DNA of 64,000 nucleotides from Candidatus Zymogenus saltonus (GCA_016929395.1 JAFGIX010000069.1:4986-68985); one strand, 5' to 3'; numbered from the stretch's first letter, positions 3,543 to 51,551 are shown. Numbers and translations: made by a program. Notes: generated by a model from the sequence alone, not told the origin.

Positions 3543-3818
3543 TGTCAACGCAATGTATATACGGCGCATCTCACCACAGGCTGAAGGCGTCTCCTTAAAC
3601 ATCAAATAGCTCCAAATCCCTTCATATCCCGCATACTTTAATCAAAATCGGGCGGAGACCTCCCGAAAATCCGTTCCCCTAAAGACTTCCCATTTGGCGA
3701 TAAGGGTGGTAAAATAATCTGCAAAGAGGATTAATTTACCAAAAAATCGCTAAACTTAAGAACCATATCGAAAAAAATCTGTCTTATCTCTAAAACCAAC
3801 GAAGTGTGGGAGGTAAAC

Positions 3819-6230
3819 ATGAGAAGGATAATTCTGCTTTTTATCATCTCGACTTTTTCATTGTCGATATTGACGTTTTCACCGGTTCAGGCGTTTTCGG
3901 AGGAGGAGACGAAGCTTCCCGAGCTTCCGAACAGCTCCGTATCCGTGCCCTGGTCCGATTTCAAGGACCTGATCAAAAAGCTCCTCGTTCCGCCGGAGGA
4001 GCCGCCGGAGCCCCCCCTGCCCCCGATTGACTACTCGATATCCGAGTCGCACTACGCCGGCAGGTTGGAGGGGGAGAGCGCGGTCTTCGATGCGGAGTTT
4101 GCCGTCGACGTACTTGCCGAGAACAAGTGGATAGAGGTGCCGATACTCTCAAGCAGCCTTGCGGTCTCCGACGTTACCATGGACGGCAAGGGTGTGACGC
4201 TGAGGACGTCGGGGAGCTACTATTATCTGATCATGAACAAACCGGGAAGACACATTCTAAAGCTCACGTTTTACAAGCCGGTGGATAAGGGATCGGGGAA
4301 GGTGGGCGTCAACGTGCCGATACCGATGGCGCCCGTATCCACGCTGGAGTTTTCCGTGCCCAAGCCTGGGATGGATTTCACGATCGATCCAGCAAATTAC
4401 AAGAGGACGACGGGTTTGGAGGGATCGACAAGGCTCGAAGCGGCGCTGCCGGTGACAAGCAGCGTCTCCATCTACTGGAGTCCCGCGGTCCCGGAGGAGA
4501 TATCGGGAGAGCTCAGGGTCATGGCCAAGGTCAATACGCTGATCTCTGTGGGGGAGGGCTTTCTCGGCGGGGTATCGACCATCAACTACGAGATCCTCCA
4601 CAAATCGATATCCACCTTCTCTTTTCTGGTGCCGAAGGATATTGATATTATTGACGTCAAGGCGGAGGGGATCAGGGACTGGGAGATAACCCCCGAAGGG
4701 GAAAAGGTGAAGGTGACCGTCAATATGAGCTTTGAGGTCAGCGGCGACTTCAGCCTGGCGGTAATCTACGAGAAAAACATGGGGGACACCACGGCCCAGG
4801 TGGATGTCCCGGAGATAGAGGTCCTCAATATTGTTAGGGAGCAGGGCTTTATGGCGGTTACAAAATCGACGGAGGTAGAGGTGGTCGAGCTAAAGGCCGA
4901 GAACCTAAGCCCCCTCGACGTTACGGAGCTCCCCGGGGAGCTGATCTCCGCCACCGAAAACTCGATCCTCTACTCATATAAATACCTGAAACACCCGTTC
5001 GGCCTGAGGCTCGACGTCACGAAGAACGAGGACGAGGAGGTTGATACCTGCGTCATCATAAAGGAAGAGCTGACTTCCCTTCTTACCGTCAGGGGGGACC
5101 TGGTCACCAGGGCGCGCTTTACCGTGAGGAACACGACCGAGCAGTTCCTGAAGCTCAAGATAGATGAGATGTTTGCAGAGGAGCCTGCGGGGGAGGATAC
5201 TGCGGATGAAGGATCGGTCGGGGAAGATATGGGAGAGGGAACAACCAAGGTGTGGAGCGCCTTCGTCTCCGATAAGCCGGTAAAGCTTACGAGGGACAGA
5301 TACGGCAGGGTTTTGATCCCGCTGGACAGGTCGGTCAAGACGGACGGCGGGATGACCTCTTTCGTCGTGGAGATGACCTACAGCACAGAGACGAAGCCGT
5401 TCAACAGGATAACGGGCTGGAGGACGTTTTACGCGCCTAAGACCGACTACAGGGTGGGAGAGATGACCTGGACACTATATCTCCCGAAGAAATACGTTTA
5501 CAGAAACCTCGGGAAGGATATGGAGCTGATATCGGCTCCTGTGATTTTTCCCGTATCCAAGCCGGGCTACGACGACACGGGGGATATGGGAATCTCAACG
5601 GGTGAGGGATTTGTGGCCGAAGAAGAGATGTCGATGGAAAAGAAGGAGTATGCCCCCGCCCCGTCGGGGGGGCTCCGGAGCCAGACCGAGATGAACGTAA
5701 TCAGAGACAGTATCGACACCATAGGGGGCAAATCGGGAAGGAAGCGGGGGGTCCTGCCGGTAAGGGTCGATATCCCATTTTCCGGTTATAAGTTGGACTA
5801 CAATAAGACGATCGTAAAGAAGGGGGAGGAGTCCATCGTCAAGTTCAGGTTCCAGGGAATGGACGTTAAGAGATGGATCTCCTATATTGAGATACTGGCG
5901 TGGGCCACTTTTTTCGCCACCCTGCTGTTCGCCGTCAGGTCTGCGAGAAAGAGGAAGAGGCTCTACATAAATAAGGATAAGTCGATAGCCGTCGCCGTTT
6001 CCTTGGGGGTAATAATCCTCTTACACCTTTTTTTCATCCTCGATTTCCACGCGCTCAAGTGGGGTCTGTTTTGGGGGCTGGTTGTCGGGCTTCTCTACTA
6101 TCTGAACGATATCAGGCACGAGGTCAAAAAGAGGCTGGCCGAAATCAGGAAAGACAAAGCAGAGGGCAAGGATGAAAAGTCCGAGAAGGATGAGTCGAAG
6201 AAGAGGCGGACGAAGAAAGATGAAGAATAG
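3819..6230 (+). CDS. large secreted protein with a C-terminal TM anchor and lysine-rich cytoplasmic tail (paralog A)
   Basis: The ORF track starts it at 3804, but ATG 3819 is preceded by GGGAGG (3807-3812). The signal peptide is MRRIILLFIISTFSLSILTFSPVQA. The N-terminal motif VPWSDFKDLIKKL is followed by a Pro-rich linker. A C-terminal hydrophobic helix is followed by a KDKAEGKDEKSEKDESKKRRTKKDEE tail. Confidence 0.8.
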   Translation: MRRIILLFIISTFSLSILTFSPVQAFSEEETKLPELPNSSVSVPWSDFKDLIKKLLVPPEEPPEPPLPPIDYSISESHYAGRLEGESAVFDAEFAVDVLAENKWIEVPILSSSLAVSDVTMDGKGVTLRTSGSYYYLIMNKPGRHILKLTFYKPVDKGSGKVGVNVPIPMAPVSTLEFSVPKPGMDFTIDPANYKRTTGLEGSTRLEAALPVTSSVSIYWSPAVPEEISGELRVMAKVNTLISVGEGFLGGVSTINYEILHKSISTFSFLVPKDIDIIDVKAEGIRDWEITPEGEKVKVTVNMSFEVSGDFSLAVIYEKNMGDTTAQVDVPEIEVLNIVREQGFMAVTKSTEVEVVELKAENLSPLDVTELPGELISATENSILYSYKYLKHPFGLRLDVTKNEDEEVDTCVIIKEELTSLLTVRGDLVTRARFTVRNTTEQFLKLKIDEMFAEEPAGEDTADEGSVGEDMGEGTTKVWSAFVSDKPVKLTRDRYGRVLIPLDRSVKTDGGMTSFVVEMTYSTETKPFNRITGWRTFYAPKTDYRVGEMTWTLYLPKKYVYRNLGKDMELISAPVIFPVSKPGYDDTGDMGISTGEGFVAEEEMSMEKKEYAPAPSGGLRSQTEMNVIRDSIDTIGGKSGRKRGVLPVRVDIPFSGYKLDYNKTIVKKGEESIVKFRFQGMDVKRWISYIEILAWATFFATLLFAVRSARKRKRLYINKDKSIAVAVSLGVIILLHLFFILDFHALKWGLFWGLVVGLLYYLNDIRHEVKKRLAEIRKDKAEGKDEKSEKDESKKRRTKKDEE

Positions 6231-8274
6231 GGCTGTAAAGGCGATAGGCCGTTCGGCGGTCTTGCGTTCGGCGGTTTTGATATCTTTCTTCCTTATCCTG
6301 TCGCTGGCACTGTTTCCCCTTGCCGGCTCGGCGGTCGCCGCCGGGGAAAAGGGGAAGGCGCCCGATATGCCCAACACCGACATCACCATACCGTGGGATG
6401 AGTTCAAGGCGCTGATAGAGAAGTTCTTCGAGGAGGAACCGACCCCGCCCACGCCTCCTCCGGTCGAGCTGTCCGTCAAGGAGGCAAAATACACGGCCGA
6501 TCTCTCGCCAGATCTTATCACCGTAAACGCCGACCTTGACGTTATCACCTTCGGTGAGGGTTGGCGGGAGCTTCGGGTCATCGGGGACGGGGCCTCCCTC
6601 GTCTCGCTTACGGTGGACGGGAAATACGCCCCCACGAAGACGAAGGGCGATTCGGTCTACGTCTATCTGAAGGGGAACGGGGCGGAATCCAAAAGGTACA
6701 ATGTGGGGGCGCGCTTTTATGTCTTTGCACCGAAGACGCCGGGCCCACACAGTGTAACTTTTTCGGTTCCAGAAGCGGCCGTGGGCACGATAGCGATGGG
6801 CTACGACCGCAAGTTAGAGAACGTAGGCATAAACGGGATCGTCACATCGAGGTCGGCTGGAAGGGTAAACGGCGTCTTGAGGGGTGAAGGGGCGATAAAG
6901 ATAGACTACACCGTGTCAGCGCCGACGGAGGAGAGAGAGGCGGTCAGGAAGAGTAAACCCGAAGAATCTATAGTCCTCTCCGAGGTGATGACGGTGATGG
7001 ACGTCGAGGAGGAGGCGCTCTTTGTCGACGCCGTCGTTGACTTCGAGGTTCGGGGCGCCCCGACCACCTCATTTGAGATAGGGTTCCCCGATTATCTGGA
7101 GCTGATCGACGTCACGGGCGAGGGGGTCTCGGGATGGGAGCTCAACGAGAAGAAGAACGGTCTGAAGGTAAGGATCGGCTACGAGGTCGTCGGAAACTAC
7201 TCGCTGACGCTCTCCTTCGAGAAAGATTTTCCCGAGGGCACAAAAGAGATCGAGTTTCCGAAGATCGTGCCCTTAAGCGTCAAGCGGGACGCGGGCTACC
7301 TTGCCGTGGTATCGGGCGGCGGCTTTGAGATATCGGAGGGAAAGTATGCGAAGATCGCCCCCCAGGATCCCTCGGAGCTTCCAAGCAAGCTCTTGAACCT
7401 GAAGGGGCTTTCGCCGGTGCTGTCCTACAGGTACACCAACCCCAACTGGCTGCTGGCGCTTAATGTGGAGAAGGGGGAGCTTCTCCCGGTCCTCTCAGCC
7501 AACGCCGATTCGGCGAACGGCGTGGGCGTTGTCACGGCGGACGGAAAAATGGTGTTGAGGACCCACTTCTATATCCGAAACAGGAACCTACAGTACCTTA
7601 AGATCACGATTCCGGAAGGAGGGGAGTTCTGGTCGGCGAGGTTAAAGGGAAGGCCGCTCAAGGTATCCGTAGACAGCGAAAAGAAGATACTCGTTCCCCT
7701 TCCCCTGACGGTTGAGAGAAATGCCGAGCCATTTTTGGTGGAGACGGTCATCTTCGTCCCCGTGGACGAGTCGGACACCCTGGGAAGGATATTAATCGAG
7801 CTTCCCACGCTCAACATCCCCGTCTCGGAGATGATGCTGACCCTCTACCTCCCGGAAAGAAACGATTACGTTCTCTTCGGCGGCGATATGGAGGAGATCG
7901 AGTACTTTGAGAGGATCCTTGAAGAAAAGGACACCTCCTCGGCATTTTACCAGAAGAACATCAAGCTTAGGAGGGACGTCTACGAGAGGCAACAGATGCT
8001 GGAGGACGTGATCAACAAGGATGAGTCGATCGCCCCCGATTCGTCGACTGGCGAAGACGTTTCGTCCCAGTTTCAGATACCCTTAAGGGGGGAGATCCAC
8101 CGCTTCGTGAAACTCATCGTGATCTCGGAGAAGAGCCACGTCACGGCGAATTATGTGAACGGTCGCCTCATGGGAGGGATAAAGCTGGCAGTCTTTTTAG
8201 CCCTCGCCATCGCGCTTTTTATCGGGGGAAGGAGGTTTGTCAGGGAGATGGGCATCAGGCTTAAAAAGAGCTGA
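6220..8274 (+). CDS. large secreted protein with a C-terminal TM anchor (paralog B of the upstream gene)
   Basis: The ORF track starts it at 6172, but the signal peptide begins at MKNRAVKAIGRSAVLRSAVLISFFLILSLALFPLAGSAVAA (ATG 6220). That start overlaps the upstream stop by 11 nt. It carries the same N-terminal motif (IPWDEFKALIEKF) followed by a Pro-rich linker, and a C-terminal TM (IKLAVFLALAIALFIGG). Confidence 0.8.
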   Translation: MKNRAVKAIGRSAVLRSAVLISFFLILSLALFPLAGSAVAAGEKGKAPDMPNTDITIPWDEFKALIEKFFEEEPTPPTPPPVELSVKEAKYTADLSPDLITVNADLDVITFGEGWRELRVIGDGASLVSLTVDGKYAPTKTKGDSVYVYLKGNGAESKRYNVGARFYVFAPKTPGPHSVTFSVPEAAVGTIAMGYDRKLENVGINGIVTSRSAGRVNGVLRGEGAIKIDYTVSAPTEEREAVRKSKPEESIVLSEVMTVMDVEEEALFVDAVVDFEVRGAPTTSFEIGFPDYLELIDVTGEGVSGWELNEKKNGLKVRIGYEVVGNYSLTLSFEKDFPEGTKEIEFPKIVPLSVKRDAGYLAVVSGGGFEISEGKYAKIAPQDPSELPSKLLNLKGLSPVLSYRYTNPNWLLALNVEKGELLPVLSANADSANGVGVVTADGKMVLRTHFYIRNRNLQYLKITIPEGGEFWSARLKGRPLKVSVDSEKKILVPLPLTVERNAEPFLVETVIFVPVDESDTLGRILIELPTLNIPVSEMMLTLYLPERNDYVLFGGDMEEIEYFERILEEKDTSSAFYQKNIKLRRDVYERQQMLEDVINKDESIAPDSSTGEDVSSQFQIPLRGEIHRFVKLIVISEKSHVTANYVNGRLMGGIKLAVFLALAIALFIGGRRFVREMGIRLKKS

Positions 8275-18595: not shown

Positions 18596-19687
18596 TCAGC
18601 TTGTTATTTTTTTGTTAGTAAGAAGACCCAGCGAGTTTAGTATTTCTTGTAATGATTCCAAGTTATTTATTGCAGATTGTAAATCCTCAACCCTTAAATA
18701 CTCAACCGATTTTCTAAAACCCTCTGATAAAGATGATATTTCATTTCTAAATTTCTCGATCTCCGTATCATTAGATACTATTATTACTTTCTGTATGCTC
18801 GGATCTCTATTTACAATCTTCTGTAAATTTAATATGGCTGAATCACGTCCCCCTCTACGGTGAACTTCAAAAGCATAAGCTATTATTCCCAAATTTGCAA
18901 TTCTACTTTTCCAAATAACATCGATTCTGCTACCGGCTGCTATTTTAATTTCTTTATCTACATCAAAACCAAGTCCGTCACCTAATTTTAAAACCAAGTC
19001 AACTACTTCATCATGATCAAAATCTTCTGAAACTTCTGAAACTAAAACATCACCTTCTTTTTTATCAGGTACATTCATACTAATATAATACAGGAGGAAA
19101 TCTAGATAGAAAAGGTCTTCAAATTCTTTGAATTCATTGATAATTTTATCTTTAACCGCATTTACCAAATCACAAAACAATTTATACTGTTTTCCACTTA
19201 TCGCCGCTGATTTTGGAAGCTCCTTTTCTGAAACACCCAGAGCAATTAAACCTTCTTTTGATCTTCTGTTGTAAATCGGATATTTACTGCTATCACTGTG
19301 GGTTAATATCTCTGAAACAGCGGCTGCCCCCATCATTCTGACATTTTTGATAATTAGATCAAAGCGTTTTTCAATAGGTTCATTGCTAAATAAAAGGTAA
19401 CCAAAGGAATCACGTATTTTTTGTATATCAGATTTGAGCATTTCTTGTAGGAGGTAATCTTTATTAGTCCAACTATTAAAAGCCCATAATTTGTGTATCA
19501 TCTCACGTAGTGTTCCCTCATCAAGTTTCAGTAATCCCTCTTTTGAGAAGTACTTTTTGAAAAATTTATTATTATATGTCCGTTCTTCTTCCCAAATTTT
19601 TCCTTCAGTTTCAATAAATTTCTTGAATTTGGGAATAACTTTTTTAATATACTCGGTATTTACATCAACCATTTTTTTAAATCGCAA
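18596..19687 (-). CDS. hypothetical protein on a strongly AT-rich foreign segment; C-terminal PD-(D/E)xK-like pattern, candidate orphan nuclease / defence gene
   Basis: 363-aa ORF with Lys/Ile/Asn-rich composition, unlike the flanking genes. C-terminal FDVD...IDVIW...AFEVH pattern. The start could be TTG 19687 or ATG 19672. Confidence 0.75.
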   Translation of the reverse strand: MRFKKMVDVNTEYIKKVIPKFKKFIETEGKIWEEERTYNNKFFKKYFSKEGLLKLDEGTLREMIHKLWAFNSWTNKDYLLQEMLKSDIQKIRDSFGYLLFSNEPIEKRFDLIIKNVRMMGAAAVSEILTHSDSSKYPIYNRRSKEGLIALGVSEKELPKSAAISGKQYKLFCDLVNAVKDKIINEFKEFEDLFYLDFLLYYISMNVPDKKEGDVLVSEVSEDFDHDEVVDLVLKLGDGLGFDVDKEIKIAAGSRIDVIWKSRIANLGIIAYAFEVHRRGGRDSAILNLQKIVNRDPSIQKVIIVSNDTEIEKFRNEISSLSEGFRKSVEYLRVEDLQSAINNLESLQEILNSLGLLTNKKITS

Positions 19688-21785: not shown

Positions 21786-22472
21786 TTACATGTCCCCGTT
21801 TCTTCGCATCTCCGTGGAGGTGAGATCGAAGTTCTTTTTAAACTCCCTGCAGAAATACCCGAAGTGGTTGTATCCGACCGCCTCGGCTATTTTGTGGACG
21901 GGGAGCCGGGAATGCATCAGGAGCTCTCTTGCCTTATCCATCTTGATGTCCCTCAAAAAGGACTTGATTCCCTTGCCGTATCTCTTCTTGAAGTGATAGA
22001 ATAGTTTTTGTCTGCTGATATCCACGGCGTCACAGAGGTCGTTTACCTGAATCCTGTTCATGTAGTTTTCAAGGAGGTAGAACCTTACCTTCTCGATCGG
22101 ATCCATCTCCACCTTTGGATCCCCTGAAATCATGTTTACCGCATTTGTTATCTCGTCGAGCTTTATCGGCTCTTTGATGTAGTAGCATGCTCCGGAGTTC
22201 AATGCCTCGATGGCAAGATCCTCCGAACTGACCGGGGCAACGGCTATTGTAGGAATGGCCCACTTCTTGGCCTCTTTGATTACCGAGATGCAACCGTCTC
22301 CCTCTAGGGAGAGGTTTATAACGATCACATCCGTCTTAAGGGAACGTATCGTGTCTATGGCGTTTATGGAATCCTTTATCCAGAGAAGGTCGAACTTATT
22401 CCCAACGGCCGAATCGAGCGATTTGACAAATTGATCGTTATTGTCACATACTAAAAGTCTTTTTTTTGTCAT
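21786..22472 (-). CDS. response-regulator receiver domain fused to an AraC-type HTH; the receiver appears degenerate
   Basis: N-terminal CheY-like fold (LLVCDNND...VIVINLSLEGDG) with Asn where the phospho-acceptor Asp is expected. C-terminal AraC HTH. Confidence 0.75.
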   Translation of the reverse strand: MTKKRLLVCDNNDQFVKSLDSAVGNKFDLLWIKDSINAIDTIRSLKTDVIVINLSLEGDGCISVIKEAKKWAIPTIAVAPVSSEDLAIEALNSGACYYIKEPIKLDEITNAVNMISGDPKVEMDPIEKVRFYLLENYMNRIQVNDLCDAVDISRQKLFYHFKKRYGKGIKSFLRDIKMDKARELLMHSRLPVHKIAEAVGYNHFGYFCREFKKNFDLTSTEMRRNGDM

Positions 22473-37724: not shown

Positions 37725-37865
37725 GCCGCTCGTCACAAGGGCGAACACATATCCCAAATCCCCATGCTTTTCGGCGGTCAGGCTTTTTTATAAGGTTGCC
37801 CCATCGACTCCTTTCAATGCTGCCCAATCGTCATTTTGTGTGGGGAAATGATGGGTCGGAGAACT

Positions 37866-38069
37866 CTATAGATCCACGAGATCCCCGTTCGGCATCAAGT
37901 CGTCTTCAGGCGGCGAGCCGGTCTCGTTGAAGATCTTCTTCCTCACACAGGTTTCCGATTTTTTCTTGTTATTACAGTACTCGTCGATCAACGAAGCGCA
38001 GGTTTTTTTATAGGAATCCCGGTATTTCTTCAAGAATCCGCAATCCTCGAACTTCTCACACATATCCAT
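37866..38069 (-). CDS. small Cys-rich protein (67 aa), hypothetical
   Basis: Five Cys residues. Purine-rich RBS-like GAGAGAGAAG upstream. Confidence 0.3.
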   Translation of the reverse strand: MDMCEKFEDCGFLKKYRDSYKKTCASLIDEYCNNKKKSETCVRKKIFNETGSPPEDDLMPNGDLVDL

Positions 38070-38248
38070 TTTTTCTTCTCTCTCAAGTGGTTTTTCTTAA
38101 AGCAGATTGTCAACAGTAAAAATCGCTATTTACCGTGCATCCGTTTACAAAGCACCGATTGGGGATTGAATATGAGATTACCCCGTCTCTCATCAGTCCT
38201 TTTTCGGCGCAGAAAGTACTTCATTCGTTTTAAATCGGATTTATGCTC

Positions 38249-38271
38249 AAAAAAAAGCGGCTTTCGGCCGC
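38249..38271 (-). terminator. candidate intrinsic terminator (GCGGC tttcg GCCGC + T8 on the - strand)
   Basis: Short GC stem followed by an 8-nt T-run on the minus strand. Confidence 0.45.
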
Positions 38272-38329
38272 CTCACTCTAAACCCAGATTTTGAGATTTG
38301 CTTTTTCCATAATCGGTCAAAAAAATCGT

Positions 38330-38560
38330 CCCTATCCCAACATGCCTTTTCCGCCCCCACCCCCCCCCTCAGCTCGACTTTCCCACCTCCCCTAACTCAA
38401 CTTTCCCACTCCTGTCTCAATTTCCCTGTCTCCCCGACTCAACTCTCCCCACCCCAACTTGCCTTCCCCCCCTAATTCAACTTTCCCACTCCCCACCCGA
38501 CTCAAGTTGCCCGACCCTCGACACAATTAACTTCCTCTACCCCTTCTTGAATCCTACTGA
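38330..38560. repeat. degenerate tandem repeat, ~22-bp unit (CTCAACTTTCCCACTCCCC-like); pyrimidine-rich on + and purine-rich on -
   Basis: About six to eight imperfect copies (cagctcgactttcccacctcccc, taactcaactttcccactcc, ccgactcaactctccccacccc, taattcaactttcccactcccc, ...). Confidence 0.6.
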
Positions 38561-38642
38561 CCCGTTACCTAAAAATCCCTGCCCCCCTTTTAAATCCTCT
38601 CGGCATTTTGTATAAACCTATTCTGCCCTTTCTTTATTGGGA

Positions 38643-38906
38643 CTAATCAGAATACTTGATATCGAAGTCCGATTCCATCTCGTCTATAAATTCCAGGGTC
38701 GCCTTGAAGTATTCCAGGGTGCCGTGCTCCGTTCCCTTCATCGCTTCAAGTTTCTTGACCTGGTTTTCCTCTGTGGCCTCCGGTGAGGTTATATGGAGGT
38801 ATATCCTGTCCCTCAACGATGAGTCGTCACAGGAGATCGACAGGGAGCCTTCGGAAAACGAGATCTCACCTATTTTTGTTCCGCTTTTTATAATGTCAGC
38901 TTTCAT
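38643..38906 (-). CDS. hypothetical protein (87 aa)
   Basis: ORF with coding-like composition. No motif. Confidence 0.45.
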   Translation of the reverse strand: MKADIIKSGTKIGEISFSEGSLSISCDDSSLRDRIYLHITSPEATEENQVKKLEAMKGTEHGTLEYFKATLEFIDEMESDFDIKYSD

Positions 38907-39130
38907 ATTAAATTCCTATTTGGGAATTATAGCATAAGTGACAGATGAGAGACAAGAAAAAATAGACTTTTTCGAGAGGAGCACAGAGTTTTTATTTTTT
39001 CCTCTTTTTATCGGAGAGGACGATTCCGGATCCGCTTTTCGAATATTTTATTGTGTCTGGACTGTTTTGGAAGTTTGCCTGCCAATATTGTCGACCGTAA
39101 TTACTCCTTTATCTTGGTAAAGTTTTTCTA

Positions 39131-39466
39131 TCAATTCAGGAACCTAACATTGCAGTAGGACTCCCGCTCTTCGATCTGGCGGATGATCTCCCTCTTTACT
39201 TCCCAGTCGTCCTCTATCGGCTCGACGCTGGAGACCTGCTGTCCCTTATCGTTCACCGCATATTTATATTTTACTATATATCCCGGCACCACGGCGAAGC
39301 GTCCGCCTCCCATCCCGCAGCAGGAGGTATCCACGACTCCGAAGCCGATTATGGCAAGGACTTCTCTGTCGTTGAGGGCGATTTTCAGCTCCTTCTCCGG
39401 CGTGTAAGACCCCGCAATGGCGGTGACCTCTTCTTCGAGGTTTGGGTGTACGTAGTCTTTTGTCAT
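39131..39466 (-). CDS. hypothetical protein with GFGVVDTSCCGMGGG motif (111 aa)
   Basis: ORF with a conserved-looking Cys-Cys-Gly-rich core. Confidence 0.5.
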   Translation of the reverse strand: MTKDYVHPNLEEEVTAIAGSYTPEKELKIALNDREVLAIIGFGVVDTSCCGMGGGRFAVVPGYIVKYKYAVNDKGQQVSSVEPIEDDWEVKREIIRQIEERESYCNVRFLN

Positions 39467-39646
39467 CTATATCCCCTTTTCGGATTTACAATATTTCTTT
39501 GTTTGATATTTTACGCTTTTAATATAGCAAAGATGTGCGTTTTTGTCAAGGTGTTGGGAGTTGCATTGTGTCGGCATGACCTTCGGGATATTTAGCGTGA
39601 TCATCTTTCCGTTCGGCATGTTGATAAAAAAGGTGATGAAAAAAAG

Positions 39647-39655
39647 AGTGCTATA
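39647..39655 (+). promoter_or_regulatory. extended -10 promoter element (TGcTATAAT) upstream of the substrate-binding-protein gene
   Basis: TG at 39647-39648 and TATAAT at 39650-39655, 44 nt upstream of ATG 39699 with its own RBS. Confidence 0.45.
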
Positions 39656-39698
39656 ATGTAGAATATGTCTTTATCAGATCTGTTTATGGGGGGATGAG

Positions 39699-40686
39699 AT
39701 GAGGTATATAAAAATTTTAACGGTCTTTGTTTTATTGATCTTAATCGCCGTTCCCGCCGCTGAGCCGCAGGAACGCCATCCGATGGTGATTGCAATTTCG
39801 CCCTGGATAGGGTACGGGCCGCTTTACGTCGCTAAGGAGAAGAGGTTTTTTGATGACCTCGATGTGGAGATAAAGATAATCAAGGAGCAGGACAAGCGGA
39901 TAGCCCAGCTGATGGGGAGGTACGCCCAGATAGTCGCGTGTCCGGCCGGGGCTATGGTCAGAAACAGCAGGAAGGAGGTCGAGTTCAGGGCGTTTTTGGT
40001 GATCGACGAGTCGAGGGGGGGGCGACGGACTCGTGGCCATGAGGGGGATTTACGATATACGCGACCTTGCGGGGAGGAAGGTCTCGATGGCCCTTTACAC
40101 CCCCAGCGAGTTCTGGTTCGATATGCTCTTGGAGAGAAGGGACCTGGAGGATCTCAAGGAGGAGATAAGTTTTGTAAACTTCGAGGGATTGGAGGCCCTT
40201 TCCGCCCTTAGAAGGGGGGACGTTGACGCAATGGTCGGCAGGGAGCCGTTTTTGTCCTCGGCCGTGAGGGAGTTTAAGGGAAACGTCATAGCCACAAGCA
40301 GCGAGACCCCCGGTCTCGTGGTGGACGTCCTCTTCTCCCAGAGGGAGACGATCGAGAGGAGGCACGGCGACTTCGAGAAGGTGGTGAGGGGCGTTTACAG
40401 GGCCGTAGACTGGATGGAGAGAAATCCCGGCGCGGCGAAGGGGATTATCAAGAAATATCTTGGGGAGAACTACAGGGTCGCCTCCGATTTCGACAACACA
40501 TTTTCCGCGGTATCCTTTTACGACAGGAATATGAACCTGCGCTATTTCGGCACGGAGGACCATCCGGGGGACTTCGAGGATACATTGGACGAGATTATCG
40601 ATTACTGGAGAGACAAGGGCGAGCTCTCGTGGAAGCCGGACCCCGAGGATTTTATCGAGTATTCACTGGTGCCGACGTACGAGTGA
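39699..40686 (+). pseudogene. NMT1/THI5-like ABC-type substrate-binding protein, interrupted by a frameshift in a G6 homopolymer
   Basis: Two ORFs (39699-40211 and 40033-40686) in different frames. Together they make one continuous SBP if a single G is removed from or added to the run at 40017-40022. Confidence 0.7.
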
Positions 40687-46374: not shown

Positions 46375-47181
46375 CTATCGGTTGAGAACGTCGTCCTTTT
46401 TGCCTCTTTTCTCCTCCTCGTGTTTTGTAAGTATCTCCTGGGCAAGGGCGAGGTATGCCATGGCGCCCTTCGAGTTTATATCGGAGAGGATGACCGGCTT
46501 TTTCATCATCGGGGCCTCGGCGAGCCTTACTGTCCTCGGGATGATCGTCGAGAAGACCTTTTCCCCCATCGCCTTTTTTATATCCTCGGCCACCTTCTTG
46601 CCGAGATTCGTCCTGAAGTCGACCATGGTCAGAAGAACGCCCTCTATCGTGAGGGACGGGTTGTAGGTCCTTGCCACCTCCCGGGCGGTTTGAAGGAGCC
46701 TTCCAAGGCTCTCCTTGGAGAAGTACTCTCCCTGAACCGGGATGAGGATCGAGTCCGCCGCAATCATCGTGGCTATGGAGATCGACCCGAGGGAGGGAGG
46801 ACAGTCGAGGATTATATAGTCATAAAACTTGTCGACCTCTGCGAACATCTGCTTGAGCTTGAACTTGTCCTTCTTCATAATCTGGTTGAGAATGTCCTCC
46901 TCGCTGGATGATTTGACATTTGACCCGATTACGTCAAGGAACTTTATCTCCGTGTGAAAGATGGCCTCTACGATCGAGACATCGTGGTAGAGGAGATCGT
47001 ACAGGCCGTACTTGTTTCCCTTCTTGTCATGTTCGAAGGAGGACGAGACACCGCACTGGGGATCGATGCCGACAAGCAGCGTCCTTACTTCAAGGGCCGC
47101 TACGCTCGCGGCGAGGTTGACGGCGGTCGTGGTCTTGCCCACGCCCCCCTTCTGGCTTACTACGGCTAAAACTCTGGCCAT
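46375..47181 (-). CDS. ParA/MinD-family P-loop ATPase
   Basis: Deviant Walker A KGGVGKTT, 268 aa. Confidence 0.85.
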   Translation of the reverse strand: MARVLAVVSQKGGVGKTTTAVNLAASVAALEVRTLLVGIDPQCGVSSSFEHDKKGNKYGLYDLLYHDVSIVEAIFHTEIKFLDVIGSNVKSSSEEDILNQIMKKDKFKLKQMFAEVDKFYDYIILDCPPSLGSISIATMIAADSILIPVQGEYFSKESLGRLLQTAREVARTYNPSLTIEGVLLTMVDFRTNLGKKVAEDIKKAMGEKVFSTIIPRTVRLAEAPMMKKPVILSDINSKGAMAYLALAQEILTKHEEEKRGKKDDVLNR

Positions 47182-47687
47182 ACGGTGAATTACACTCCTT
47201 AAGAGAAATCTATAATTGCGGCTGTAATGAACTCAAATAAAAGAGCTTCGCACCCCTTGACGGCTTGACCTAAGTATCGGGACACTCTTTCTGCAATGGT
47301 TAAACAGCCTCAAAAAACTATTCTCATCGCGGGAACGTAAAGACGAAAAAACTGTTTTTTTCCATTATCTCTGATTCCCACTCGTTTTTCAAATGCCTTC
47401 AACGACAATTTGAGATTTTCGGTCGATACGAAAAATCCCTTTATTACGAGAGCGCTTCGATTCTTGCGCGGGTTCTCTTTCAGCCTTTGTTACCATGATA
47501 AACCGCCGGGTCGATCGCCGATATCGATCAACCCCTCAATCAATATCTCTATCGGATTCTCATATCTCAATGCCCTGAACATCGACCCAAGCATCAGCCA
47601 ATCGGCTTAATCTTAATTACGGACCTCTATTCCGACCGGCCCCTCTCATATTTGCATGCTCTCAGACCTCAAACACTCCAACGAGGA

Positions 47688-48911
47688 TCACCCCTCATCA
47701 TTTTCTTGAGGTTTTGCAAGGGAGCCGGCCATCTTGTTCAGCAGGTCGGAGTCTTCCTTGAACTTCCTCAAATCCTCATCGTCTATTTTGCCCTTGTCCG
47801 AGACCTTTTTTAGGATTCCGCCCATGTCGGCGTAGAGCCTCTGGATATCGTCAAGGTGTTTTTTTGTGGCTTGGGATTCTTCCGCCAGGATTTCCCCTTC
47901 GGCTGTTTCCGGCTTTTTTACGGACTCCAAAAAACCCATCAGTTTTTTGAGGCCGTATTCCAGGCCGCTTTGGGCCTGTTTTATCGCGTAAATCGATTTA
48001 TCGGAAAGCTCCACCTCTCCCGAGGCGATCTCCTTTGATACCTCGGCGATGTTTGAGAGCTCCGATTCGATAAGGTCGAGGCCCATGTAACGGGTTGCGC
48101 TCATGAGGGACAGAGACGCTTCTTCGAGATCGAGGACGGCCTCTTTTTGGGGCGAGGATGTGGAGATGGAATCGAGGATCTTGGAGATATTCGCTGTAAA
48201 CTCCTTCAATCGAGAAATGTAGTACTCCAACAGCTCCGGGTCGTCTTCGTATATATCCTCCTCGAAGTAATCTTCCGGCGCTTCTTCGTCGGCGGCCGGT
48301 ATGGCTGAGAAAGATATCTCCTCCGAGAGTCGAGGCGTCTTCAGGATCCTCGGCAGTATCTCGATCCCGACCAGGCGGTTCGGATCGAGAAAATCCTTTA
48401 TATCCTTTGCAAGGGAGAGGGATATCCCCCTGACCGTGATAATCTTTGCCAGGGGAGCGTTGGCGATATCCTCTATATTTTCAAATCCATTCTCGATGAG
48501 TGCCGTGGCCTTTTCTCTGCCGATTCCGGGGATCATCAATAATTTTTCAATCTTCGATTCATCGACGGGCTTATCTCGTTTTTCATAGACGACTTCTGTC
48601 ACCTCCGGCTCGGCCACCTCAGGCGGTATGACTTTCTCGAGCTCTTTAAATCTACCCTTGAATTTGACCAGGTTTTCGCCTATCTCTCCGGGACTGTCGA
48701 GGATGTCGGTTAAGTCTATAAGGGAATCCTCGATTTCCTCGATGCCGGTCATCCTGACGGCCCAGATAAACTCGTTGACCTCGGTTCTGAGCCCCATTAC
48801 GTTTTTTGGCGATGGATCTTCTATTGCGCCTTCAAGCTTTGTCTTTACGTCGGCCATGAACCTGGGGGACATTTTGCCGGTTATAGTTTCCAGCTCATCT
48901 ATAAGAGACAT
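47688..48911 (-). CDS. hypothetical protein with a tandem helix-hairpin-helix (HhH)2 DNA-binding module
   Basis: LLMIPGIGREKATALIENGF and IITVRGISLSLAKDI HhH motifs. Acidic coiled-coil-like N- and C-terminal regions. 24 nt downstream of the CheB-like gene. Confidence 0.65.
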   Translation of the reverse strand: MSLIDELETITGKMSPRFMADVKTKLEGAIEDPSPKNVMGLRTEVNEFIWAVRMTGIEEIEDSLIDLTDILDSPGEIGENLVKFKGRFKELEKVIPPEVAEPEVTEVVYEKRDKPVDESKIEKLLMIPGIGREKATALIENGFENIEDIANAPLAKIITVRGISLSLAKDIKDFLDPNRLVGIEILPRILKTPRLSEEISFSAIPAADEEAPEDYFEEDIYEDDPELLEYYISRLKEFTANISKILDSISTSSPQKEAVLDLEEASLSLMSATRYMGLDLIESELSNIAEVSKEIASGEVELSDKSIYAIKQAQSGLEYGLKKLMGFLESVKKPETAEGEILAEESQATKKHLDDIQRLYADMGGILKKVSDKGKIDDEDLRKFKEDSDLLNKMAGSLAKPQENDEG

Positions 48912-48935
48912 AAGAATAGATCCTTATACACGTTT

Positions 48936-50012
48936 TCAAGAGACATTAATAAGGCCGTTTAGATTGACCATGTCATAGACGTCTCCCATGAGGTATTCGA
49001 GAATCCTCGGCAGATTATCTATGTCCGCCATAAGATCCACGGCGCCTTCCCTTACCGCGTTTTCCCCGACTATCGGAAGCACTCCCCCGCCCTCGCTGAT
49101 GGCTATTGTGGTGCCCCCCCGATCCTTTATCGCCTTGAGGCCCTGAATTCCGTCGTTGCCGATTCCCTCCACGAGGATTCCCATGACCAGATCCCCGAAG
49201 GCCTCGGCCGTGCTCTTCATCATCGTATCGATGGTCCCGGTTTTGTAAGGCAGCGAGACCAGCTTGCCGCCGCCGTCGACGGTGCCCTTAATCCCGAAAG
49301 AATCCCCCAAAGACGTCGTGTAACAGACCCCCCCGACAATATTCTCCCCCGCTACGGCGCCCTTGATCGACCATTGGGTGTACCTGTCAAATTTCGATAT
49401 GAATTTCTCAATAATCTCCTTGGGAAGGGGTAGTGACAGAAAGAGGGCCGTATCGTTTCTCCTCGGGAGCGTCGAGGCCAGCTTCAGGGCCGAGGAGATA
49501 CCGACCCTGGGCACCCCCAATACCAGAAAATAGGTCGGCTTGTCTTTACAGCTTTCCCAGCCCGGCTTTTCGTACAGGGTGAGCTTTACCCTTTTCAGCC
49601 TCGTGATGTCGGCTTTGGAAATGGTGTCGATCGATTTTATGAACTCCTTTAGGAGGTTGTCTGAGGGATTTCTTATTTCATCGGCCGAAAGGGAGATGAA
49701 GTCGAGTAGTCCGAGGCGAAATGCGTCAAACATGCTCGAGGCAGTATCAGAGGTGTTCCCGACCCCAAGGACCTTGTAAGGACCGTGGAGCTGAACGAGC
49801 TTGAGCTGTCTCATAGTGGCCTTGTGATCGCCGGAGAATCCGAGGACGACCACAACATTCCCCCGCTTCTCGAGCTCCGTTGTCGCCTCCTCCACATCGG
49901 AAAAGATCCCTATGACCTGGGCCGAGTCGTTAACCCTGAGGAGGGTCTCGACGGCTCCCCTTAGCTTCTCGTCCGAAATTATTATCGCAACCCAAGTTTT
50001 CATATGATTCAT
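48936..50012 (-). CDS. CheB-like protein (receiver + methylesterase fold) with degenerate catalytic residues
   Basis: Aligns along its whole length to CheB, including the GIGNDG block. The phospho-acceptor Asp is replaced by Gly (VVVLGFSG). The esterase Ser (GASTGG replaced by GVPRVG) and His (QHMP replaced by SLPLP) are substituted. Confidence 0.7.
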   Translation of the reverse strand: MNHMKTWVAIIISDEKLRGAVETLLRVNDSAQVIGIFSDVEEATTELEKRGNVVVVLGFSGDHKATMRQLKLVQLHGPYKVLGVGNTSDTASSMFDAFRLGLLDFISLSADEIRNPSDNLLKEFIKSIDTISKADITRLKRVKLTLYEKPGWESCKDKPTYFLVLGVPRVGISSALKLASTLPRRNDTALFLSLPLPKEIIEKFISKFDRYTQWSIKGAVAGENIVGGVCYTTSLGDSFGIKGTVDGGGKLVSLPYKTGTIDTMMKSTAEAFGDLVMGILVEGIGNDGIQGLKAIKDRGGTTIAISEGGGVLPIVGENAVREGAVDLMADIDNLPRILEYLMGDVYDMVNLNGLINVS

Positions 50013-50203
50013 TAAGTCCCTTTATGTAAAATACCGCTTTATAATGATTCTAATGCTGTTTTTTTTACTTAATTCTTTTTATAAACTTAAAAAGCAAAAA
50101 ATTCAAGTCTTTTTTTTGTACTGCTGTTCCGGTGTATTTTGGGGAGGTGAGGTGGTGGAAAAAGTTAAAGTACAAATCACAATATTATACAAATAATAAA
50201 TCC

Positions 50204-50233
50204 AAAAAAGGGTCAATTGTACAGTCTTGACCC
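50204..50233 (-). terminator. intrinsic terminator of the Zn-ADH gene
   Basis: GGGTCAA ttgtacagtc TTGACCC stem-loop with a T-run on the - strand. Confidence 0.5.
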
Positions 50234-50327
50234 GCACCCGACTTTCTTAAATATCCGCCGTCCTCCGGTCGAGGTTATCGTAAAAAAACGGGGCTATAGA
50301 AATGTGAGGCCGATTCCTGTAAACAGG

Positions 50328-51551
50328 CTAATCGAAGACGAAGGCGGTCTTTACGGCCCCGTACCTCTCCTTGAACACGTTTACCTTTATCGCCTCCCTG
50401 TAGTCCTTCAGGGGGAATTTGTGCGTAACATATTTTTCGAGGTCTATCTTCTTTTCCCTTATCAGGTCCAGGGCCACATCCCAAGTATAGACGCTCTTTC
50501 CCTTGTAGTCCTGCATCCCGTATCCGAGGGATCCGGTCATGGTGATCTCCTTGAACCAGATGGGGGTCAGGTCAACCTTTTCCGTTGCGGCAAGGCCGAT
50601 GAGCCCGTAGAATCCCCCTGTCCTGATGAGCCTCAGCGACATCTGCATTGTCGCGGCGTGGCCGACCGTGTCGAATATTTTGTCAACGCCCCCCATCAGT
50701 ATCTGATCGCCTAAAATCGGCTTGTAGACCCTTGCGCCTGTCATCTCTGCTATTATCTCGTATATCGTCCTTTTCTCGCGGCCCGGGTAGATGACTATAT
50801 CGGCCCCCGCCTCTTTCGCTATCCCGCCGCTGAAGGGCGATTCTTCGATCACGACGATCTTGGCCTTTCCGCCGAGTCCCCTTATGGCAGCGACCGCGGA
50901 GAGCCCAAGCGGCCCCGCCCCTATCACGATTACGGTGTCGCTGTCGTCCGGGAAGTTATTCATGACGGGGTGGAGGGACGAGCAGAAGGCGTCGATCATC
51001 ACAGCTGTCTCGTCGCTTATGCCGTCGAGCCTGTAGATCTGGGATTTATGGGCGAGAAAATATTTGCTCCAGCCGCCCCCGGTCTCATTTGAGTAGCCGG
51101 TGTTCGCCCCCCTGGCGATTTTCCCCTCGGCCGAGTTTTCGCAGACGGAAGGCTCCCCCCGGGCGCAGCTTGGGCAAATCTCATCCATCCCCCTCGCCTC
51201 GCACGACAGGGCCGGGTTTACGACCACCCTGTCGCCTGCTGAAAATCCCCTGACGCCGCTTCCCACCTCGGCCAGGGTGCCGGCGTTTTCGTGTCCCGGT
51301 ATGAAGGGGAACGAGGCGAACGGGCTCAGGGTGGGGCTGTCGGCCATCTTTATGGCGCTCATGTCTGAGGCGCATATCCCTGAGAGCTTCGTCTTGACGA
51401 CCGCCCAGTCCTCGTTGGGGAGGGTCGGCTCCTCGACTTCGGCAAGCCTTATCGGCGAGATCGGGCTCCACATTACGCTTTTTGTTATCATCCCCCCAAG
51501 CGTCATTCCGAGGAACCTAAGAATACTGAAATTATAGACAATTGCTTTCAT
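50328..51551 (-). CDS. zinc-dependent alcohol dehydrogenase family (MDR) protein
   Basis: GHENAG catalytic-zinc motif and structural-zinc Cys cluster. Start set at MKAIVYN, preceded by GGAGG. Confidence 0.8.
   Translation of the reverse strand: MKAIVYNFSILRFLGMTLGGMITKSVMWSPISPIRLAEVEEPTLPNEDWAVVKTKLSGICASDMSAIKMADSPTLSPFASFPFIPGHENAGTLAEVGSGVRGFSAGDRVVVNPALSCEARGMDEICPSCARGEPSVCENSAEGKIARGANTGYSNETGGGWSKYFLAHKSQIYRLDGISDETAVMIDAFCSSLHPVMNNFPDDSDTVIVIGAGPLGLSAVAAIRGLGGKAKIVVIEESPFSGGIAKEAGADIVIYPGREKRTIYEIIAEMTGARVYKPILGDQILMGGVDKIFDTVGHAATMQMSLRLIRTGGFYGLIGLAATEKVDLTPIWFKEITMTGSLGYGMQDYKGKSVYTWDVALDLIREKKIDLEKYVTHKFPLKDYREAIKVNVFKERYGAVKTAFVFD

Follow-up and report, generated by a model that had tools for sequence, protein, structure and literature searches.

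The window is a stretch of 64,000 nucleotides (64 kb) from Candidatus Zymogenus saltonus (GCA_016929395.1, JAFGIX010000069.1:4986-68985), analysed over its whole length. Three genes lie in it head to tail on the minus strand, in the order CheB-like, HhH/P1-like, ParA. The first (48936..50012; protein MBN1574202) encodes a CheB-like pseudoenzyme of 358 amino acids (aa), counted from M1; the CheB-like orthologues begin at M4, position 50003. The second (47688..48911; MBN1574201) encodes an acidic multidomain protein of 407 aa with helix-hairpin-helix (HhH) motifs and a helical bundle resembling the P1 domain, a histidine phosphotransfer (Hpt) domain, of CheA. The third (46375..47181; MBN1574200) encodes a Soj-type ParA ATPase of 268 aa. 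A spacer of 24 nucleotides (nt; 48912..48935, minus strand), with an AAGGA ribosome-binding site 9 nt ahead of the ATG of the second gene, separates the first two genes, and a non-coding spacer of 506 nt (47182..47687, minus strand) lies ahead of parA. The three open reading frames (ORFs) and both spacers are placed as in an earlier note made from the sequence alone. Within Candidatus Zymogenaceae the locus forms a lineage-specific chromosomal module, assembled from chemosensory parts that have been disabled, and its pseudo-CheB and pseudo-P1/(HhH)2 proteins are a paired, selectively maintained unit.

The CheB-like and HhH/P1-like proteins

The product of the first gene is a full-length CheB homologue, far beyond chance, as had been claimed in the earlier note. 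Residues 165-336 match Pfam CheB_methylest (PF01339; E=8e-19; 68.5 bits, the cut-off being 24). Alignments with two NCBIfam CheB models cover residues 10-336 and score about 80 bits, short of the models' cut-offs of 293 and 342. The AlphaFold2 (AF2) model, for which 14 family sequences were used (pLDDT 79, pTM 0.78), has a (beta-alpha)5 receiver with the esterase fold after it and superposes in Foldseek on full-length CheB (6ymz, 1a2o) with E~1e-19, a TM score of 0.78-0.84 and 18% identity. The receiver-like domain (pseudo-REC), delimited by the AF2 pattern, the CheB alignments and a match to the CheB receiver 3t8y, spans residues ~5-132 (49617..50000; this and all following domain coordinates are on the minus strand). 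The domain of CheB_methylest fold, delimited by PF01339 and by PDB and family alignments, spans residues 165-336 (49005..49520). A family-specific C-terminal helix, residues 337-358 (48939..49004; 345-357 in the AF2 model), carries a conserved D..N.N motif and is missing from the aligned CheBs.

Residues were assigned from PDB alignments and family alignments. Of the phosphorylatable receiver only the acidic pair is retained (Asp10-Asp11 of CheB, here D14-E15); the phospho-acceptor Asp56 is replaced by Gly58, the very residue named in the earlier note, the receiver Thr/Ser by Gly85 and Lys109 by Leu108. At the catalytic triad the nucleophile Ser164 is replaced by Pro168 (GVPRVG) and the base His190 by Pro195 (SLPLP), and the triad Asp286 is kept as D287 (GIGNDG). 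The earlier note was right on the loss of Ser, His and receiver Asp; its Leu at the His position was one residue off, and the loss of the complete triad that it expected does not extend to the Asp. The substitution pattern is conserved family-wide (GVP or GAP; LP; G.DG), and phospho-acceptor, Ser164 and His190 are gone in all CheB-like family members. On these alignments the protein lacks phospho-acceptor, esterase nucleophile and base, and both phosphorylation and esterase chemistry appear to be lost.

In an exhaustive profile (HMM) search of 1.8 billion representatives, only five full-length CheB-like members (383-613 bits) and two fragments were found, followed in rank by three intermediates at 139-156 bits and then by ordinary CheBs at ~130 bits or less. 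A wide gap in sequence score thus sets the family apart from real CheBs (383-613 vs <=156 bits). The closest CheB-like proteins found outside it are P0029-P0031 (139-156 bits) and P0035 (127 bits). Like the window protein, these have lost His190 (Asp or Glu instead), and some are without Ser164; unlike it, they keep the receiver Asp and lack neighbouring HhH/P1-like and ParA genes. The loci of these relatives (L037:1894-8065 and the contig of P0030) contain several REC-CheB paralogues in tandem, REC-PatA_N-REC-CheB fusions among them. P0030 adjoins genes of CheR, CheW and methyl-accepting chemotaxis proteins (MCPs), and P0029 adjoins a hybrid histidine kinase; with its nearest relatives among such genes, the family is consistent with a chemosensory ancestry.

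The second protein was recognised in the earlier note as an (HhH)2 protein, which holds; its CheA-P1/Hpt-like bundle had been missed, and with that bundle the picture becomes one of a paired pseudo-Hpt and pseudo-receiver. The N-terminal four-helix domain, residues 1-100 (48612..48911; AF2 helices 16-94), has pLDDT 75-89 in most 10-residue blocks. The (HhH)2 domain, residues 118-177 (48381..48560), contains the hairpins IPGIG and VRGIS; residues 122-175 match Pfam HHH_5 (E=7e-11, 42.9 bits vs a cut-off of 27), HHH_2 is reached with 29.7 bits (cut-off 27), and the HhH family profile matches, among PDB sequences, UvrC, Hjm, RadA and XPF, i.e. at the (HhH)2 only. An acidic linker, residues 181-224 (48240..48371), is predicted to be disordered (net charge -11; pLDDT <50 for 191-223). 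The CheA-P1/Hpt-like helical bundle comprises residues 225-335 (47907..48239), with Leu267 at the position of phospho-His48, and is followed by a C-terminal two-helix tail, residues 336-407 (47691..47906). Overall pLDDT of the AF2 model is 61, with most helical blocks at ~65-89; in the model the bundle spans 225-332, then two more helices follow. The tail is missing from a shortened orthologue (L007:2680-3720), in which the ORF ends at 346 aa.

The best structural matches of the C-terminal bundle are all CheA P1 (Hpt) domains; 'BRIC' proteins interleaved among them are engineered from CheA P1, and the 104 aligned residues are, by its length, attainable only with the C-terminal bundle. In Foldseek, P1 and P1-derived chains independently rank top, with weak E-values. 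The modelled domain has the four/five-helix bundle fold of Hpt. Pfam Hpt gave no match, including with the isolated N- and C-terminal helical segments scanned at E up to 10. In hhalign, 14 HhH/P1 family members (including translations from related loci) were compared with nine CheA P1 domains drawn from E. coli and plasmid-borne cheA genes; residues 225-350 align with P1 residues 6-124 (Prob 63%, P=7e-5, 119 columns). With a thin 8-sequence profile against E. coli P1 alone the comparison was insignificant, the register being already right. The register is consistent across two structure-comparison methods and one profile-profile comparison.

At the phospho-His48 column the window protein has Leu267; the L012 and L016 orthologues have His, and other orthologues Gln, Thr, Tyr or Val. 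With such variation the site is not conserved, nor is the Lys51 position. The best-conserved stretch of the domain is helix B with the B-C loop (LEE.S.SL...RYMG[LF]), around the former phospho-site. Model and alignments together indicate a CheA-P1/Hpt-like bundle without conserved phospho-His. The His of the L012 and L016 orthologues stands exactly at the CheA His48 position (EEITHELVK and EEITHGLVK, respectively) and could be a vestige or a still-working site.

The N-terminal domain aligns in hhalign with the C-terminal domain (P=1e-3) and with CheA P1 (P=0.058) in the same register, and is possibly a second, shorter Hpt-like bundle. In two related loci of one sublineage (L030:8082-9683 and L031:1332-2963) the HhH/P1-like protein reaches 533-543 aa through tandem duplication of this N-terminal helical domain, and the duplicated repeats carry an Hpt-like 'SG.GMLGL' loop. 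The whole protein is strongly acidic (pI 4.5, net charge -37); net charge of the (HhH)2 domain across orthologues is -5 to +3. From the canonical hairpins, DNA binding by this domain is plausible. Acidic (HhH)2 modules, e.g. the NusA AR domains, bind proteins.

The ParA gene and conservation of the locus

The presence of a ParA/MinD-type ATPase downstream, as read in the earlier note, is borne out by Pfam (AAA_31, E=2e-47, 162 bits; CbiA, 84 bits). The deviant Walker A motif KGGVGKTT is intact and the Arg equivalent to R189 of Soj is present (TMVDFRTNLG). The NCBIfam equivalog ParA_partition is matched with 93.5 bits, its cut-off of 180 not being reached. The best solved relative (206 bits) is 8RAY, the chromosomal ParA of Myxococcus xanthus (10.1101/2025.03.14.642875). 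The protein is apparently an active Soj-type ATPase. Its orthologues are 61-89% identical; in a database of 5.8 billion proteins those of 64-89% identity are confined to the trio-bearing lineage, and they make up a separate clade whose range coincides with that of the pair. The next ParAs (<=51% identity) are ordinary chromosomal proteins of many phyla, canonical ones with parAB linkage among them; the nearest outside relative, P0199, sits in the order mnmE-gidA-gidB-parA-parB. ParB (ParB_N, HTH_ParB) is missing from the scanned and annotated ORFs of the window and from all fetched flanks of related loci, and no ORF >40 aa occurs in the 458 nt downstream of parA.

The 506-nt spacer contains no minus-strand ORF >35 aa, no Rfam match and no minus-strand terminator-like site. 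Two sigma70-like sites are found in it (47392-47364 and 47570-47542). It is shared only with the closest relative, L009 (86% identity), in which it measures 469 nt and is only partly conserved; well-conserved blocks are, for example, CAAGAATCGAAGCG, TATCGACCGA.AATCTCAA and GTTCCCGCGATGA. Given this spacer, the ParA gene of the window probably has its own promoter. On the other side of parA, a gene with a V4R domain is inserted ahead of the acyl-CoA dehydrogenase gene in some relatives (L001:13679-14227), and in L002 a 1346-aa IAT_beta gene (intimin/invasin-type) takes the same position; the downstream boundary of the trio is a variable spot.

The trio is found only in Candidatus Zymogenaceae. 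At 90% identity the CheB-like family makes up 15 clusters and the HhH/P1 family eight. The GTDB scan, with one genome per species, gave 8 genomes, labelled Zymogenus, Zymogenaceae, uncultured Thermodesulfobacteriota or delta proteobacterium, and the metagenome scan added 11 loci. The order CheB-like, P1/HhH, ParA on one strand is present in 8/8 GTDB species genomes, in 4/11 metagenome loci and in L007; the other 7/11 metagenome loci end before ParA. The co-occurrence looked for in the earlier note is therefore kept in every locus that is long enough, within one family only and between flanks that are equally syntenic: DUF374 and ADH genes upstream, acyl-CoA dehydrogenase, GNAT and MBL genes downstream. 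As the same housekeeping genes flank the trio everywhere, the link to ParA is inseparable from inherited synteny. Spacers of 16-25 nt between genes 1 and 2 across the family uphold the tight coupling of the CheB-like and HhH genes that had been proposed. Most lineages have 47-117 nt between genes 2 and 3; a spacer of 449-506 nt is seen only in the window, in the 86%-identity relative (L009/L025) and in L007. That ParA follows in every long-enough locus agrees with its earlier inclusion in the unit; such linkage is no proof of a functional tie, and in the window it runs across the 506 nt.

Identity to the window proteins is 61-89% for ParA, 40-86% for CheB-like and 28-77% for HhH/P1. The ratio dN/dS against L009 is 0.12 for the CheB-like, 0.19 for the HhH/P1 and 0.12 for the ParA gene, and 0.13 for the neighbouring ADH gene. 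All three genes are under purifying selection; with dN/dS of 0.12-0.19 they are maintained, not decaying. In the long-read 'MFD' metagenome-assembled genomes (MAGs) the HhH and ParA genes are split in L002/L013, and the acyl-CoA dehydrogenase gene is split in L001/L012 and L013. Judged from the sequences, the interrupted genes are probably indel errors and not pseudogenes, since acyl-CoA dehydrogenase, a housekeeping neighbour, is split as well.

Chemotaxis genes were sought by Pfam scans of 46 window ORFs, i.e. all gene-like ORFs >=150 aa. For three more, the matching contigs carry precomputed Pfam annotation (Hist_deacetyl, AAA_33, DUF374), and the remaining six are named from similarity to neighbours or from neighbour annotation, without a scan of their own. 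No CheA, CheW, CheR, MCP or ParB domain occurs in the scanned and annotated ORFs of the 64-kb window; the lack of CheA, CheW, CheR and MCP had been read correctly in the earlier note. No che genes are present in the fetched flanks of related loci. Neither motility nor chemotaxis is mentioned for the class Zymogenia in the main text of its published description.

Interpretation, rival explanations and related systems

The cluster is probably reused as a phosphorylation-independent scaffold. In a fuller form, proposed tentatively and given not quite an even chance, a fossil Hpt-receiver pair would be reused as a phosphorylation-independent adaptor or regulator acting with ParA. The P1-like bundle of the second protein would dock on the receiver-like domain of the first via the ancestral Hpt-receiver interface, in a contact that would be permanent and independent of phosphorylation; the idea fits because the helix B region and the receiver active-site loops are conserved. 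The former esterase domain would serve as a binding or scaffold surface, not as an enzyme. The complex might be tethered through the (HhH)2 domain, to DNA or to another protein, and might serve the nucleoid-binding ParA encoded alongside as adaptor, regulator or cargo, in parallel to ParC/ParP.

Several findings weigh against this combined scaffold-plus-ParA proposal. The AF2 model of the HhH/P1-like protein is low in overall confidence, and the P1 homology is modest at the sequence level (Prob 63%, no Pfam Hpt match). The strong acidity of the HhH protein speaks against avid binding to DNA. A single family accounts for all the loci, with flanking housekeeping genes as syntenic as the trio, and the ParA linkage may be inherited; in the window, ParA lies behind a long spacer with promoter-like sites. 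Proteins that partner ParA typically touch the ATPase with a positively charged, disordered N-terminal peptide (PMC10241942). Neither upstream protein has such an N-terminus; the CheB-like protein begins with beta1 of its receiver fold, a strand and not a disordered peptide.

A bolder form is judged unlikely. Here the trio would be an unrecognised ParA-driven positioning or segregation system, in which a His-less CheA-P1, locked onto an Asp-less CheB receiver and (HhH)2-tethered, may stand in for ParB in Zymogenia, work in addition to it, or place some cargo on the nucleoid.

The rival that survives best, possible but not favoured, takes the two-gene operon alone as the functional unit and ParA as an unrelated neighbour, the chromosomal Soj of the lineage or another orphan ParA, kept by block synteny. 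The metabolic genes flanking every locus in conserved order, the long spacer ahead of parA (506 nt; 469 nt in L009) with its promoter-like sites in the window, the nearness of this ParA to chromosomal ones (8RAY at 206 bits, P0199 beside parB) and the absence of a basic N-terminal peptide from both upstream proteins are as expected for such a neighbour; a parA placed within 47-117 nt on the same strand in most lineages, the lack of ParB in window and fetched flanks, and a ParA clade restricted to exactly the pair-carrying genomes are not.

A second rival, doubtful, sees in the CheB-like protein a re-tooled enzyme, or else a sensor of small molecules or peptides, with new pocket residues (Cys230, D287, W214, GGG loop), perhaps acting on, or regulated by, its helical Glu-rich partner. 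New invariant residues are indeed present in the family (W214, C230, P183, D287, G309-G310 and the GGG loop), with overall identity at 40% many glycine-rich pocket loops are kept, the protein retains the CheB fold and its domain packing, and purifying selection matches in strength that on a metabolic enzyme. Yet nucleophile and general base are both Pro, incapable of catalysis, and no homology to other enzyme families was found (Pfam, NCBIfam, structure search).

An ordinary auxiliary CheB serving a che system elsewhere in the genome, as database annotations of the protein as CheB would have it, is highly improbable: the loss of phospho-acceptor, Ser164 and His190 in every family member effectively refutes it, NCBIfam scores are ~80 bits vs 293-342, the score gap to real CheBs is sharp, che genes are lacking in window and flanks, and the description of Zymogenia is silent on chemotaxis and motility. 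Functionless, decaying pseudogenes of a lost chemotaxis operon, suggested by the lost catalytic and phosphorylation sites, the split HhH and ParA genes of L002/L013 and the shortened HhH gene of L007, have next to no probability, as ORFs are intact in all other genomes despite 28-45% identity, dN/dS is 0.12-0.19, the substituted positions are themselves conserved, and the splits occur in long-read MAGs in which a housekeeping gene is also split.

The scaffold proposal may be set beside known systems. With CheB (1A2O, 6YMZ) the window protein shares two-domain architecture, fold and full-length domain packing, and the GxGxDG loop, triad Asp and receiver acidic pair are kept; it differs in the extra C-terminal helix, in five site losses, in the lack of che neighbours and in scores well under the NCBIfam cut-offs. 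Unlike CheA P1/Hpt proteins (1TQG, 1I5N, 3KYJ), the P1-like bundle has no kinase core (P3-P5) attached; its fusion partners are an (HhH)2 domain and another helical bundle. Pseudo-Hpt proteins exist, e.g. AHP6 of Arabidopsis, and pseudo-receivers, i.e. aspartate-less receiver proteins, are a known general class. The window receiver resembles that class in having the fold without phospho-acceptor and in presumably acting by protein-protein contacts; it differs in being coupled to a dead CheB output domain and co-encoded with a His-less Hpt-like partner.

From chromosomal ParABS (Soj/Spo0J; 8RAY), to which it is 45-51% identical, with deviant Walker A and DNA-binding Arg intact, the window ParA differs in having no adjacent ParB, in lying outside the mnmE-gidAB-parAB context and in forming its own clade. 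In ParC/ParP (Vibrio, Pseudomonas) and PpfA/TlpT (Rhodobacter), ParA-like ATPases and che-derived adaptors place chemosensory arrays (PMC5706961, PMC10241942); ParP is a CheW-derived adaptor that couples the arrays to a ParA-like ATPase (PMC5706961), and genes of A/D (ParA/MinD) ATPases usually adjoin partner or cargo genes (PMC10241942). The window locus is similar in that a ParA/MinD-family ATPase is encoded beside chemotaxis-derived proteins. It differs in having no CheW-like domain, MCPs or CheA nearby; compared with ParC/ParP, its che-derived parts are CheB-like and P1-like and chemically dead, and its ATPase resembles chromosomal Soj/ParA.

Literature searches turned up no account that pairs a dead CheB with a His-less P1 domain, whether ParA is present or not. 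Pseudo-receivers and pseudo-Hpt proteins being each known, what is new is the conserved, co-encoded pair with both phospho-sites lost. Such a pair under purifying selection would, if true, illustrate cleanly how in nature a signalling interface can become a permanent scaffold. Should ParA really belong to the system, the ParA/MinD positioning family would gain a new type of partner, one that lacks the basic peptide usually found at the N-terminus, and a second, independent route, besides ParP, would lead from chemotaxis parts to a positioning ATPase. Confinement of the family to a rare uncultured lineage, with a function that is so far only proposed, limits the significance.

Further features of the window

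Upstream of the CheB-like gene lies an AT-rich intergenic region of 315 nt (50013..50327, minus strand), presumed from a reading of the sequence only to be the promoter region of the operon, and beyond it the ADH gene, with its end at 50328. The scanned ORFs of the window include enzymes of the tricarboxylic acid cycle and of fermentation and the Mla and Liv transporters. The only other receiver domain is that of an AraC-type regulator (21786-22472). No tRNAs and no Rfam families are present anywhere in the window, the 506-nt spacer included. A defence or phage origin of the trio was considered and rejected: PADLOC returned nothing relevant in the window, PHROGs returned a generic ParA family and one weak match of unknown function only, and the conserved synteny with housekeeping genes points to a chromosomal locus.

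Large ORFs of 432, 808 and 700 aa without Pfam match lie on the plus strand at 210-1508, 3804-6230 and 6172-8274; those of 808 and 700 aa come after a gene of a TetR-family regulator (2382-2972) and a 169-aa ORF, also without Pfam match. Only short ORFs are found at 37725-39700, between an M28 peptidase gene and an NMT1-like gene, in a low-GC stretch at 38-40 kb (GC 0.46). A 363-aa ORF without Pfam match (18596-19687, minus strand), with a third-position GC of 0.25 vs 0.7-0.8 in its neighbours, lies inside another low-GC stretch at 18-20 kb (GC 0.43), between fumarase and succinyl-CoA-ligase-like genes, and by its composition may be a foreign insertion.

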